Below, in pieces: positions 59,832-64,000 of a stretch of DNA of 64,000 nucleotides. Origin of the DNA: Escherichia coli (GTDB lineage: Bacteria > Pseudomonadota > Gammaproteobacteria > Enterobacterales > Enterobacteriaceae); the NCBI RefSeq assembly GCF_003018115.1, contig NZ_CP027457.1. One strand, written 5' to 3'. The notes below the pieces were generated by a model that saw only the letters and a program-made list of their open reading frames with translations, did no database searches and was not told the DNA's origin. Position 1 is the stretch's first letter. Each line of letters opens with the position of its first letter. The position numbers were made by a program, and so were the translations under genes.

Positions 59832-60044
59832 TTGTCCCGTAAAATGACAGGAATTGTCAAAACCTTTGACGGCAAAAGCGGCAAGGGTCTTATCACCCCA
59901 TCCGATGGTCGTATCGATGTCCAGCTTCATGTTTCAGCGCTCAATCTCCGCGATGCAGAAGAAATTACCACCGGATTACGCGTGGAATTTTGCCGGATAA
60001 ATGGTCTGCGTGGCCCTTCAGCTGCCAATGTTTACCTTTCATGA
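59832..60044 (+). CDS. cspF: Cold-shock-like protein (CspA family, divergent)
   Basis: 70-aa [40 protein letters not shown]...[19 protein letters not shown]. Confidence 0.85.
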
Positions 60045-60098
60045 GCTATATTAAAGCTTTAATTTCAGGCCCCATCGGATCACACATGGAGAGTTTTT

Positions 60099-60188
60099 AT
60101 GAATAACCCCGTCTGTCTTGATGACTGGTTGATTGGCTTTAAAAGCTTATGCTGTACTTTGGCCGTAATAGCTCTGCTAATAATATAA
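60099..60188 (+). CDS. Candidate 29-aa small membrane protein downstream of cspF
   Basis: ATG with GGAGAG RBS 5 nt upstream; [29 protein letters not shown] has a hydrophobic C-terminal helix. No homology evidence. Confidence 0.35.
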
Positions 60189-60465
60189 TAAGCAGACTCA
60201 TTGTGTTTAGGGACATTGTACTGGAAGAAAACATTTTAAACATCAGGCAAATAACCAAGTCACCAGCTAAATAATAAGTTAACAGACATGAGTCCCGGGA
60301 TGAGATTCAACATTACCATTGCCCCATTTAAAGCACAAAACCCGCTCATCAGCGGGTTTTCTACTTTTTCTTAACGTCGGGTATACAAAGCCCATCGTTG
60401 AAAAAATTTTATCCATATTTTTTGAAAAATGCAAACATCATGTCGCCATCTTCAGCAAAAATCAT

Positions 60466-61218
60466 TTATCTCGTCACCTTCCTCAATTGCGCTTCCGCGT
60501 ATGCTTCTTCCTGCCAGCACTTTGTTACCAGTTTACCAATGACGTCCGCATACCCCTTATACCACTGATAATCGGTCAGGTCTGGTACCAGCTTCTGGAC
60601 ATGACGTCGTGCCAGCGTGGTCGGTAAACGACTAAACCGGTTTCCATTACAACGCCCACAAATCTTATATACCGGTACGCCATGAAACCGGGTTCTTTTT
60701 TCATCCAGAACAATCCCTTTACCCTTACACCCTCTGCACGCTGTGCTGGCTTCGCCCTTACCATGGCAATGCTGACATAGTTCCTTCACCCATTCTTCCT
60801 TGATTACAGATTCCCCGCGTCTGTAGTGTTTCACCACTTCGCGCAATACATTATAAAATCCCGTACCTGAACAATGCTCACAGCGAGCCTTACTTGCCGC
60901 AGACCTGGAGTAATCAGCAAAGGCAAAACTCACGAGGTAAGGAATAATCTGTAACCGGATTTCTTCACTCAATTTGTTCAATGTCGGGTTATCCAGTGCC
61001 ATCGCGTAATTTAGCAGGCCTTCAATCGCAAACTGAGGGTCCTGAACACCAACTTTTGCCAGAAATAAGGCCAACCCAAGTGGTGCTTTCGACTGCACCA
61101 TCCCCTGCGCTGCCATTACATCCGTAATTGTTAAACAACCGGTGCCTGTCGCTGGAGCGTCATCGCTCAATTTTGGAGATTTTGGGGAGTAATATTTTGG
61201 TAAGGCTTCAAGGTTCAT
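60466..61218 (-). CDS. quuQ: Late-gene antiterminator Q-like protein
   Basis: MNLEALPKYYSPKSPKLSDD... 250 aa from internal ATG; Cys-rich zinc-binding motifs (CEHCSGTG, CQHCHGKG, CRGCKGKG, CGRCNGN). Confidence 0.85.
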   Translation of the reverse strand: MNLEALPKYYSPKSPKLSDDAPATGTGCLTITDVMAAQGMVQSKAPLGLALFLAKVGVQDPQFAIEGLLNYAMALDNPTLNKLSEEIRLQIIPYLVSFAFADYSRSAASKARCEHCSGTGFYNVLREVVKHYRRGESVIKEEWVKELCQHCHGKGEASTACRGCKGKGIVLDEKRTRFHGVPVYKICGRCNGNRFSRLPTTLARRHVQKLVPDLTDYQWYKGYADVIGKLVTKCWQEEAYAEAQLRKVTR

Positions 61219-61231
61219 GCTCGTTCTCCAC

Positions 61232-62320
61232 TTACGCCAGTACGCCAATTGTCAGCGCGCGATCGATAAAACGAAATATCAGCTCCAGTTGGGAGCCATA
61301 CTTATCTTCAAATGCCACTGTATCCGTATGCAGCTCGTTGTGATGCTTTCTGCACAAAGGCAACACAAAGAGATCATGTGCTTTTGTTCCCATTCCGCCC
61401 TGCCCGTGACCAATCAGATGATGCGGATCGTCGGCTGGCATACCGCAGCAAGCACACGGCTGTGTCTTAACCCAACGTGTGTATTTCTCCTTAACCCAGC
61501 GGCGACGTTTAGGCAGCTTCATGAAAGATTCCGGAGACTCTGGATCAACGGTGATGCTTACCACCGTCTTTTCCTGTGGTGATTTTTGTTGCTGGTGGGC
61601 GTAAGGCAACGGTGCAAGATTTTTTGTGCGTTGTTTCAATATGCTGGTGGCGGTCTGCTCTCCCGGTACGATGTCGCTTTCGCGGTACACCGAGCAGATT
61701 TTTTCCGCTGGTAATCCCAGCGAACGACGCGATACAGCCTCAGGTAGTGCATCCACCACCTGATTGCAGACCGCCCACCAGGATAATTCAGCCAAAGATA
61801 ATTCCCGCTCCTGCGTACCGCTTATTGCGTGACGGATGACGTCAATCACCCATGCTGTCAGATTTTGTTGAGCAAGCAGCTCCAGTGATTCCGATGTCTG
61901 GTCACGCAGTTGGTTGTCGCAGTGCCAGCACAACACCATTGCGCCGGTACCATAACGGTGAATGACTGTTTCAGTGTGATGGTAATCGCCATTAGGCCAC
62001 TGGCAGGATGTAACATGACGTAATAGCCAGTCGGACAATGCGCCAACGCCGCCAGCAGCACGAATCACCCGTTCGTTACTAAAAAACGGCAGCAATGTTT
62101 TGTCTTCCGCCAGCGGCTGGCGAACGGCAGGAACGACTCCGGATGGCAGATTACGCATGCTTTTTGGTTCCGGTTCCACCAGCACTCGAGGATTATGAAA
62201 TATCTGTATGGATTCACGGCCCGGCTTAAGGACCACCAGCCCAAGCTCAGGCACCAGAACAGGTCTAAGTAATACCCGCACGTTACCTCCAGATCCGTTG
62301 CTGGAAAGTGCGGGACGCAC
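61232..62320 (-). CDS. ydfU: DUF968-family prophage protein YdfU; start uncertain (track start may be extended)
   Basis: 362-aa ORF with C-terminal Cys/His cluster (CACCGMPADDPHHLIGHGQGG...CRKHHNELH). Confidence 0.8.
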   Translation of the reverse strand: MRPALSSNGSGGNVRVLLRPVLVPELGLVVLKPGRESIQIFHNPRVLVEPEPKSMRNLPSGVVPAVRQPLAEDKTLLPFFSNERVIRAAGGVGALSDWLLRHVTSCQWPNGDYHHTETVIHRYGTGAMVLCWHCDNQLRDQTSESLELLAQQNLTAWVIDVIRHAISGTQERELSLAELSWWAVCNQVVDALPEAVSRRSLGLPAEKICSVYRESDIVPGEQTATSILKQRTKNLAPLPYAHQQQKSPQEKTVVSITVDPESPESFMKLPKRRRWVKEKYTRWVKTQPCACCGMPADDPHHLIGHGQGGMGTKAHDLFVLPLCRKHHNELHTDTVAFEDKYGSQLELIFRFIDRALTIGVLA

Positions 62321-62561
62321 GTGGTGGGCGTTCGGAATAAGGCAGCCTGACAGAGATTATCCAGTGCCGATAGTCGAGACTGAGAGCTTTCTTAACCTCG
62401 AACCCGCGCCTGCGGTAAGAATGAATCAGCCATTCGGCCTGTTCTGCAGTGCATGGAGGGTGCTGGAACCATTCAGACTTGAATGCGTGAGAATACCGCC
62501 CGTGCGTGCAGGCAAGAACGGGCGAATTATCAGAATTGTAATATTTTGCGTTGCGTGCCAT
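62283..62561 (-). CDS. Hypothetical 92-aa protein immediately upstream of ydfU
   Basis: ORF MARNAKYYNSDNSPVLACTHGRYSHAFKSEWFQHPPCTAEQAEWLIHSYRRRGFEVKK...; non-random composition; ends where the shorter ydfU start would lie. Confidence 0.4.
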   Translation of the reverse strand: MARNAKYYNSDNSPVLACTHGRYSHAFKSEWFQHPPCTAEQAEWLIHSYRRRGFEVKKALSLDYRHWIISVRLPYSERPPRASRTFQQRIWR

Positions 62562-62627
62562 CGGTTTTCTCCGGTGGCACGGTGTTACTCAGCGGGAGTT
62601 CAGCCCCGCGCAAGATTGTAGATGAGT

Positions 62628-62879
62628 TTATTCTCCTGAAAAAGCAGAAAAGCCAGCTTTTATTCCGATCTCTTTCAATGCCTGTAATGAAGTGACAAAC
62701 TCACCTTCGCGCAAGATAAATCCGTCCGTGACCCGAGCATCCACAAAATTAATTAACGCAGCCCCATTCTTTCGCAAACACATAATGCGGTAATGACTAA
62801 CAAGATTTCCATTTTCAACGCACACAGCATAGAGGCCATCTTCACAAAAAATTTTACGCAGTTCTTCGATGTTCATCAT
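62628..62879 (-). CDS. rem: Qin prophage protein Rem
   Basis: 83-aa ORF MMNIEELRKIFCEDGLYAVCVENGNLVSHYRIMCLRKNG... Confidence 0.8.
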   Translation of the reverse strand: MMNIEELRKIFCEDGLYAVCVENGNLVSHYRIMCLRKNGAALINFVDARVTDGFILREGEFVTSLQALKEIGIKAGFSAFSGE

Positions 62880-62997
62880 CAGAATCCTTCCGGATAATTA
62901 GCTCTCCCCTTTAAGGGACCATCCCTCTTATCCCTGCGCGCTACTTAAGTATTTTTGATTCTATTCCGGCACCGTCCAGAACTTCAAACGCGTTGAA

Positions 62998-63027
62998 AAT
63001 AAAAACAAAAACCCGCCGAAGCGGGTT
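62998..63027 (-). terminator. Rho-independent terminator downstream of hokD (end of relB-relE-hokD operon)
   Basis: Hairpin AACCCGC-TTCG-GCGGGTT followed by T-run on the minus strand. Confidence 0.55.
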
Positions 63028-63095
63028 AAGTGCGGGTGCGTTGAGGATGCCTGCCACATCAGAGGTGGCGAGGGATTTCTCCCCCGCCGGGTCTC

Positions 63096-63251
63096 TTACT
63101 CCTCAGGTTCGTAAGCTGTGAAGACAGCGACCTCCGTCTGGCCGGTTCGGATTCGTACCTCGCAGAGGTCTTTCCTCGTTACCAGTGCCGTCACTATGAC
63201 GGTTAAACAGATGACGATCAGGGCGATTAACATCGCCTTTTGCTGCTTCAT
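63096..63251 (-). CDS. hokD: Hok-family membrane toxin HokD (RelF), 51 aa
   Basis: Minus-strand translation MKQQKAMLIALIVICLTVIVTALVTRKDLCEVRIRTGQTEVAVFTAYEPEE; below ORF-track cutoff. Confidence 0.85.
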   Translation of the reverse strand: MKQQKAMLIALIVICLTVIVTALVTRKDLCEVRIRTGQTEVAVFTAYEPEE

Positions 63252-63322
63252 AGCCTGCTTCTCCTGTCAACGCAAAGCAGAAGTGTCACCTTCGGTGCGA
63301 AACAGAGATGTCATGCTTTGGT

Positions 63323-63610
63323 TCAGAGAATGCGTTTGACCGCCTCGCTATATACTTCCGAGCGTTCTCTTTTCCCAACAGAAATCACGAAAACGACAAC
63401 TTTCTCGTCTATAACCTGGTATACAAGGCGATAGCCTGAAGACCGGAGCTTAATCTTGTAACAATCAGGCATACCACGGAGCTTGTTTGCTTCAATCCGG
63501 GGTGACTCAAGTACTTCAACCAGCTTCTTTTTCAACTGTTCACGTACCGTCGAGCCCAGCTTTCGCCATTCCTTTAGTGCCCGCTCGTCAAAATCCAGAA
63601 AATACGCCAT
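63323..63610 (-). CDS. relE: RelE mRNA interferase toxin
   Basis: 95-aa ORF MAYFLDFDERALKEWRKLGSTVREQLKKKL... Confidence 0.95.
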   Translation of the reverse strand: MAYFLDFDERALKEWRKLGSTVREQLKKKLVEVLESPRIEANKLRGMPDCYKIKLRSSGYRLVYQVIDEKVVVFVISVGKRERSEVYSEAVKRIL

Positions 63611-63849
63611 CAGAGTTCATCCAGCGTCACACGTACTGGCTTAGGATTACGAAGCCGTTCTTTCACTATCTCCACAAGTTCAGCATCTTCATCACTCAGG
63701 AGTGTCTGTTTGAACGGCAAGCGTTCATTGTCAGCGATATACTCGAGCATGAGACGAAGCGCTTCAGAAGGAGTTACACCCATTTTTTCAAGCGCGGCGT
63801 AAGAACGCGCTTTAAGTTCATCGTCAATACGCAGGTTAATGCTACCCAT
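63610..63849 (-). CDS. relB: RelB antitoxin (RHH DNA-binding)
   Basis: 79-aa ORF MGSINLRIDDELKARSYAALEKMGVTPSEALRLMLEYIADNERLPF...; 1-nt overlap with relE. Confidence 0.95.
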   Translation of the reverse strand: MGSINLRIDDELKARSYAALEKMGVTPSEALRLMLEYIADNERLPFKQTLLSDEDAELVEIVKERLRNPKPVRVTLDEL

Positions 63850-63860
63850 GTCTTACACCT

Positions 63861-63887
63861 CTTGTAATTACAAATGTCATTACAAGT
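63861..63887 (-). promoter_or_regulatory. relO: relBE operator: palindromic repeats overlapping the relB promoter
   Basis: CTTGTAATTACAAATGTCATTACAAG directly upstream of relB start; 12-bp palindrome TTGTAATTACAA plus repeated ATTACAA. Confidence 0.7.
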
Positions 63888-64000
63888 ATCGCACTACAAC
63901 ATGCTTAGGGCAAGTCACGAAGGAAGTCAGAAAGTAGTCGTAAGAACGGTGATCACTGTCCGCTTTGTGCCAGGAGCAGCCATTGCTAAGTCCATCCTGT

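Follow-up and report, generated by a model that had tools for sequence, protein, structure and literature searches.

We examined an open reading frame (ORF) of 92 codons that lies on the minus strand between the genes rem and ydfU, near the end of a 64,000-nucleotide (nt) stretch of Escherichia coli DNA (contig NZ_CP027457.1 of RefSeq assembly GCF_003018115.1; this whole stretch is called the window below). The end of the window corresponds to the left part of the Qin prophage of E. coli K-12, where the order on the minus strand is relB, relE, hokD, rem, the 92-codon ORF, ydfU and ydfT, the last of which encodes a Q-type antiterminator. Our analysis indicates that the frame is very probably a genuine coding gene of the Qin prophage that is absent from the curated annotation of strain MG1655, and that its product is a small basic protein (isoelectric point, pI, of about 10) of the family PHROG 1212. 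The preliminary description of this DNA had offered a separate small gene as one possibility, and purifying selection, a ribosome-binding site of its own, stand-alone homologues in phages and a confidently predicted fold all favor that possibility. The gene and its parts are located as follows.

62283..62561, minus strand: coding sequence of the 92-amino-acid (92-aa) protein, stop included; 92 codons, with the ATG at 62561 and the TAA at 62285-62283.
62569..62572, minus strand: GGAG Shine-Dalgarno sequence of the 92-aa gene, 7 nt before the ATG.
62484..62561, minus strand: codons 1-26, the N-terminal extension of the Escherichia form.
62286..62483, minus strand: codons 27-92, the conserved 66-aa core that matches PHROG 1212.

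On comparative evidence, the frame between rem and ydfU is a genuine, conserved protein-coding prophage gene, and this status follows from frame-specific conservation and not from length. The frame had initially been called non-random. Its length alone does not bear this out, because 132 ORFs in the window reach 92 aa or more and 31-41 still do so after mononucleotide shuffling, but its conservation does. To compare the frame among relatives, we used 223 loci with the long form of the gene from IMG/VR and RefSeq, which reduce to 101 distinct DNA variants. The 92-aa frame was open in all 101 variants, and the remaining five frames were open in 0, 0, 22, 0 and 0 of them. Lengths among the long-form loci were restricted to 92, 90 and 89 codons, and the entropy at codon positions 1, 2 and 3 was 0.25, 0.28 and 0.61, with the maximum at the third position. 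The pooled ratio of nonsynonymous to synonymous substitutions (dN/dS) was 0.21 for the whole ORF and 0.10 for codons 27-75 of the core. The ratio fell to 0.075 in codons 76-92 and rose to a nearly neutral 0.61 in codons 1-26, where the frame is nevertheless kept, with indels of 2 or 3 codons only. The frame is thus conserved in related prophages, and the substitution pattern in its core fits coding. The GGAG sequence before the ATG is conserved as well, as either GGAG or AGAG at the same position in the related loci.

These results bear directly on the explanation that the frame is open by chance, within a leader of ydfU that is terminated by Rho and not translated, and that its call by the NCBI Prokaryotic Genome Annotation Pipeline (PGAP) is an over-prediction. 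In keeping with this explanation, ORFs of such length are common in the shuffled windows, the MG1655 curators list no gene here, and a study of Rho-dependent termination treated the region as untranslated (PMC9160355). However, the frame-specific conservation, the dN/dS of about 0.1, the third-position variability and the indels in multiples of three, together with the protein-level homologues in distant phages described below, are contrary to it. We consider a chance frame extremely improbable and, as far as sequence comparison can decide, already refuted. An antisense ORF of 137 aa (62208-62621, plus strand) was also considered as a gene and rejected; it is open in only 22 of the 101 variants and not conserved, which suggests that it is a by-product of the codon usage of the sense gene.

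The gene represents a minor gap in the reference annotation and not a new kind of element. In the MG1655 record NC_000913.3, no gene is annotated in the 346-nt gap between ydfU (1643255-1644304) and rem (1644651-1644902), where the ORF is present with identical sequence at 1644306-1644584. The impression in the preliminary description that K-12 has no gene at this position is therefore correct for MG1655, but it does not extend to K-12 BW2952, in which PGAP annotates the frame as the hypothetical protein WP_012304870.1; PGAP annotates a similar protein in O157:H7. Of 5426 complete E. coli genomes, 4407 matched a 601-nt query around the gene, and each of 30 sampled genome records had a hypothetical protein annotated at the matching position. 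In UniRef, the exact 92-aa sequence is the “Prophage protein” A0A094VVT9, which occurs on at least 1000 contigs. As RefSeq, UniProt and PHROGs all list it already as a hypothetical protein, the gene is not novel. In literature searches by accession, coordinates and gene names, no mention of the ORF came up. Although no bacterial annotation is more heavily curated than that of MG1655, this conserved gene of 92 codons is missing from it. With the gene added, the 346 nt between rem and ydfU would no longer be misread as “intergenic”, for instance in work on how Rho silences Qin. It also serves as a pointer to a widespread, uncharacterized small protein that is usually encoded beside the junction-processing nucleases of lambdoid phages. 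Otherwise, it is an ordinary hypothetical prophage gene.

To place the protein in a family, we searched profile and sequence databases. Residues 27-92 match positions 1-66 of the 66-position profile of PHROG 1212, a family of unknown function, with E = 1.7e-35. Scans of the 92-aa protein against Pfam, NCBIfam and PADLOC gave no match, and PADLOC gave none for YdfU or Rem either. A word-indexed protein search returned 129 relatives, nearly all of them 89-92 aa long and from Escherichia or Shigella. When 1.8 billion cluster representatives were searched exhaustively with a profile, the result was only 75 clusters (at 50% identity), the majority of which are proteins of 66 aa that start with MKxxWF and align to positions 28-92. 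With tblastn, short stand-alone homologues sharing 35-48% identity were detected in temperate phages from at least six genera. The hosts of this short form are Cronobacter (phiES15), Salmonella (Gifsy-1, Gifsy-2, SPN3UB, SEN34), Klebsiella, Citrobacter, Hafnia, Edwardsiella, Erwinia, Pantoea, Yersinia (PY54) and E. coli (mEp237, N15). Named members of PHROG 1212 are STM2620.1n of Gifsy-1, its counterpart in Gifsy-2, mEp237_051, gp17 of phiES15, ORF47 of PY54 and “Orf QD1” of N15 (UniProt O21966). The family consensus reads [M/F]KxxWFxH..T.E[EQ]A..L[IV]..Y[RK].[RQ]G...K.LS.D...W.VS[AV].LP.S...PR.[SD]R.[YWF]QQ[RK][MIL]W[RG], and the core ends in a conserved C-terminal tail, LPxSxxxPRxxRx[YWF]QQ[RK][IM]W. 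Among the 52 aligned members, pI is mostly about 9-10.7 and falls below 9 in six. In the N15 GenBank record (AF064539; 3016-3219 of our extracted locus L007), the homologue between gene 40 and gene 41 is unannotated, and the 142-aa UniProt entry for “Orf QD1” looks over-extended relative to the conserved form of 67 aa.

The Escherichia form differs from the other members by its extension of 26 aa and by its partner, which is a YdfU-type DUF968 protein and not RusA, YbcO or NinG; it shares with them the predicted fold, the motif at the C-terminus and the location in the nin or early-right segment. In this form, an invariant Phe has taken the place of the ancestral Met, and there are essentially no in-frame starts in codons 2-44, apart from a rare TTG in 7 of the 101 variants (3+3+1). 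A downstream start that would yield a 66-aa product in K-12 was ruled out, as no in-frame ATG, GTG or TTG occurs near codon 27. With the ancestral Met replaced and no internal start available, translation must begin at the upstream ATG, which would explain why the N-terminal extension keeps its frame and yet evolves almost neutrally. We propose that the ancestral form would have been a 66-aa protein consisting of a compact beta-alpha-beta-beta domain and the conserved tail ending in QQ[RK][IM]W. In the Qin-type Escherichia prophages, the original start would then have been lost and replaced by a start 26 codons upstream, which added an N-terminus that is under weak constraint and probably disordered.

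The predicted structure is consistent with this division. An AlphaFold2 model built from an alignment of 52 sequences had block-mean values of the predicted local distance difference test (pLDDT) of 91-95 for residues 31-70, low confidence for residues 1-20 (block-mean pLDDT of about 50) and intermediate confidence for the tail. The core is predicted to form a strand at residues 28-33, a helix at 39-52, and strands at 56-60 and 67-75. A sequence-profile search of the PDB found nothing below E = 0.17. The best Foldseek match in the PDB had E = 0.18, and the weak resemblances to R3H-like and SPOR-like structures were not significant; against BFVD, Foldseek recovered only a member of the family itself, N15 Orf QD1.

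The 3′ end of the gene meets the start of ydfU, and two further features are needed to describe this junction.

62286..62290, minus strand: GGAGG, formed by the last two codons of the 92-aa gene (TGG AGG), the Shine-Dalgarno sequence of ydfU, 4 nt before its GTG.
61232..62281, minus strand: ydfU, 349 aa, with a DUF968 domain (His-Me finger, HNH-like nuclease superfamily).

As the preliminary description had noted, the ORF ends within a few nt of the shorter ydfU start: a single C separates its TAA from the GTG at 62281-62279, the start used by RefSeq. The 38-nt overlap with an extended ydfU frame was also accurately described, because the longest possible frame begins at GTG 62320, encodes 362 aa and shares 62283-62320 with the 92-aa ORF. 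Nevertheless, the start that is kept across the 223 loci is GTG 62281, with GGAGG before it, and not GTG 62320, and the match of YdfU to the PHROG 96 profile likewise begins at the first residue of the 349-aa form. The junction AGG-TAA-C-GTG was identical in 207 of the 223 long-form loci, and the TAA was kept in all of them. This invariance of the stop is difficult to reconcile with the idea, also raised earlier, that the ORF is the N-terminal part of a longer ancestral YdfU detached by a frameshift, for which the abutting frames and the 38-nt overlap might be taken as signs. We looked for homologues fused to YdfU-like proteins and found no full-length fusion among the 129 and 75 hits of the two protein searches; the few longer hits were short chimeras on one or a few contigs. 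Moreover, stand-alone homologues of 66 aa occur in phages without DUF968, the neighbors of the gene vary, and YdfU-like DUF968 proteins that lack the 92-aa gene (in cdtI and mEp390) begin at the same N-terminus. A split YdfU is therefore the least probable of all the explanations considered and, like the chance frame, can be regarded as refuted by these comparisons.

The spacing of 1 nt between TAA and GTG and the GGAGG embedded in the coding sequence suggest that the 92-aa gene and ydfU are probably translationally coupled. In the proposed mechanism, the gene would be read together with ydfU, its last two codons forming the ribosome-binding site of the latter. Such coupling also raises the question of whether the peptide matters at all. 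If the frame were purely a regulatory upstream ORF, only its translation would count, by bringing ribosomes to the ydfU start or by shielding the transcript from Rho, and the peptide would be functionless. This explanation is consistent with the 1-nt distance from stop to start and with the placement of the ydfU ribosome-binding site in the last two codons, as well as with a strong Rho-dependent terminator reported upstream of ydfU. It also accommodates the dip in synonymous divergence at the junction, where the proportion of synonymous differences (pS) was 0.16-0.27, as against 0.40-0.56 in the core. There is, in addition, a precedent in the orf45-anrP pair of the Gifsy-1 isrK locus, which works by such coupling. 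There, as in the 92-aa gene, the stop of a short ORF abuts the next start, and the prophage operon involved is kept silent in the lysogen. For orf45-anrP, the coupling was demonstrated experimentally, and the nucleotide sequence is conserved whereas the amino-acid sequence is not (PMC4825925). The opposite holds at the Qin locus, where the peptide is strongly conserved: the core has a dN/dS of 0.10 and a fold predicted with high confidence, and identity across genera remains at 35-48% despite a different downstream gene. The two loci differ further in that the isrK locus is under the control of a small RNA (sRNA), whereas none is known at the Qin gene, and the isrK-like Rfam match nearby is well below threshold. 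For these reasons, we assign little probability to a purely regulatory role. In our preferred explanation, a genuine protein-coding gene, the coupling probably exists alongside a functional protein and not in its place.

To understand whether the gene is tied to ydfU, we compared its neighbors in the long and short forms. Among the long-form Escherichia loci, a YdfU-type DUF968 gene lies directly downstream in 186; the others are mostly contig ends or spurious short frames inside ydfU that arise from the nearest-start ORF picker. The gene upstream of the long form varies (rem, an 86-aa rem-like gene, hokD and others), and rem is sometimes absent, so that rem falls outside the conserved unit, which consists of the 92-aa gene and ydfU. 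The short form has other partners. Its gene orders are listed below, with X denoting the PHROG 1212 gene.

75 Enterobacter-type loci: DUF1367, X, RusA.
13 further loci: X, RusA-like protein (identified by reading of its sequence).
mEp237: DUF1367, X, YbcO, RusA, Q.
phiES15: YbcN/NinB-like, X, YbcO, RusA, Q.
Gifsy-1: STM2620 (DUF1367-type by position), STM2620.1n (X), NinG, YlcG, Q.
PY54: RdgC-like, X, ORF48.
N15: Q-like gp40, X (unannotated, 67 aa, overlapping the gp41 start), gp41.

YbcO follows the PHROG 1212 gene in 4-5 further loci besides mEp237 and phiES15, and gp41 of N15 is an RNase T-like exonuclease with a Lar-like domain. The family thus usually lies immediately upstream of a gene for a DNA nuclease, namely YdfU/DUF968, YbcO, RusA, NinG or the N15 exonuclease. 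Its location is the early-right or nin segment near Q in temperate phages and prophages of Enterobacterales, and this position is alike in Qin (between rem and ydfU-ydfT), mEp237, phiES15, Gifsy-1, PY54 and N15. In lambda and DLP12, the corresponding place on the map is taken by the small gene for NinE (PF05322), the order in DLP12 being ybcN-ninE-ybcO-rusA. Homology to NinE was rejected, as there was no Pfam match at E ≤ 1 and the hhalign probability was 0.1%; NinE is a positional analogue only, without detectable sequence relationship.

The same comparison addresses the possibility that the 92-aa protein is an antitoxin or immunity protein that neutralizes the HNH-like nuclease YdfU. Type II toxin-antitoxin pairs typically have a small gene directly upstream of, and coupled to, a nuclease gene, and this arrangement is shared with nuclease immunity proteins as well. 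Furthermore, the 92-aa protein is labeled “toxin to Rem” in the phage records ON470583.1 (locus L234, 2501-2779), ON470619 and ON470612, although this label has no evidence behind it. Neither the records nor our searches lent it support; it is apparently an artefact of annotation and might spread to further records. However, obligate pairing with one nuclease is not seen, because the family also occurs upstream of RusA, YbcO, NinG or an exonuclease. Conversely, a YdfU-like protein is encoded in 186 phage records, but its identity to YdfU is 60% or more in only 20 of them; the 92-aa form is carried by 20 phage records too, an agreement of two sets that were compared by number and not record by record. 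The two more distant YdfU-like records inspected, cdtI and mEp390, have no PHROG 1212 gene upstream of their DUF968 genes, and the majority of phage YdfU-like genes appear to lack one. No antitoxin or defense profile in PADLOC, Pfam or NCBIfam matched the protein. Finally, nuclease immunity proteins are mostly acidic, and the 92-aa protein is basic. An antitoxin role is therefore very unlikely, and the varied partners, together with the YdfU-like genes that do without it, suggest that PHROG 1212 is an independent module and not a dedicated partner of YdfU.

The comparisons described above demonstrate the coding status, family membership, architecture, conserved junction and neighborhood of the gene. 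For its function, we offer a more tentative suggestion. Because the family is usually found upstream of a phage DNA nuclease gene and is usually basic, its most likely role may be that of an accessory factor of the phage recombination or DNA-processing module, a possibility to which we give distinctly less than even weight. In such a scheme, the conserved tail of the 92-aa protein would make contact with nucleic acid or with a partner protein, and the coupling of translation would keep production of the protein in step with that of the nuclease. The tail residues are the same despite different downstream genes (TFQQRIWE in N15, TFQQRIWR in Qin), which points to a function at the level of the peptide, beyond the embedded ribosome-binding site. 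A more specific version, which we consider rather unlikely, is that PHROG 1212 is an unrecognized accessory subunit of the nin module whose QQ[RK][IM]W tail docks a host factor, such as the beta sliding clamp, or branched DNA, and thereby directs or restrains the adjacent nuclease (Rap/NinG, RusA, YbcO or YdfU). Beta-clamp-binding motifs have the form QL[SD]LF or QxxL/MxF. The conserved QQ[RK][IM]W resembles them only loosely.

The expression of the gene would be expected to follow that of its neighbors. By its position, it would belong to the delayed-early nin transcript that runs toward the Q antiterminator. In Gifsy-1, the transcription start of the antQ operon has been mapped 1.6 kb upstream of antQ (PMC4825925), so that this transcript should span the PHROG 1212 homologue STM2620.1n. 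For strain SL1344, only four genes, SL2582-SL2579, are listed in the operon (PMC4825925). STM2620.1n (2501-2701 of our locus L332) lies within the span of the antQ operon and may be unannotated in SL1344. In K-12, the strongest of 72 measured Rho-dependent terminators were those upstream of prophage genes, including ydfU; in rho mutants, ydfU rises and rem does not, and the sequences upstream of such genes were analyzed as untranslated (PMC9160355). The stretch upstream of ydfU (MG1655 1644305-1644650, equivalent to 62282-62627 of the window) contains the conserved 92-aa ORF, whose presence may matter for the working of the terminator. With the transcript silenced in K-12, the gene is probably seldom translated there under laboratory conditions. 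The sense strand of the gene has a modest excess of C (83, versus 65 G).

A number of minor features surround the gene. Its upstream neighbor in K-12 is rem, located as follows.

62628..62879, minus strand: rem.

Rem has no Pfam family; its matches are PHROG 340, of unknown function, and a far sub-threshold match to the NCBIfam SocB toxin (14.9 bits, with a cut-off of 210). In the 66-nt spacer between rem and the ORF lies a GC-rich hairpin, GCGGGG-CTGAAC-TCCCGC (62592-62609, minus strand), which is not followed by a U-run, and a weak sigma-70-like match, TTTTCA-16 nt-TACAAT (9/12), overlaps the rem stop (62615-62642, minus strand). Both are consensus-level matches that could affect independent expression or the loading of Rho. 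The isrK-like match mentioned above (63006-63087, minus strand) scored 25 bits against an Rfam gathering score of 50, with E = 0.012, and covers an intrinsic terminator just downstream of hokD (stem 63010-63027). We rejected a relationship of this match to the 92-aa gene, because isrK of Gifsy-1 lies across Q and encodes unrelated products. The position of the real isrK downstream of Q suggests that the Qin match is probably a mere similarity of terminator hairpins. The region 60000-64000 of the window did not occur as one exact string within the fetched MG1655 segment (NC_000913.3), and at least one difference may exist there, or the strain may be a different K-12-like isolate; the 92-aa ORF itself is identical.

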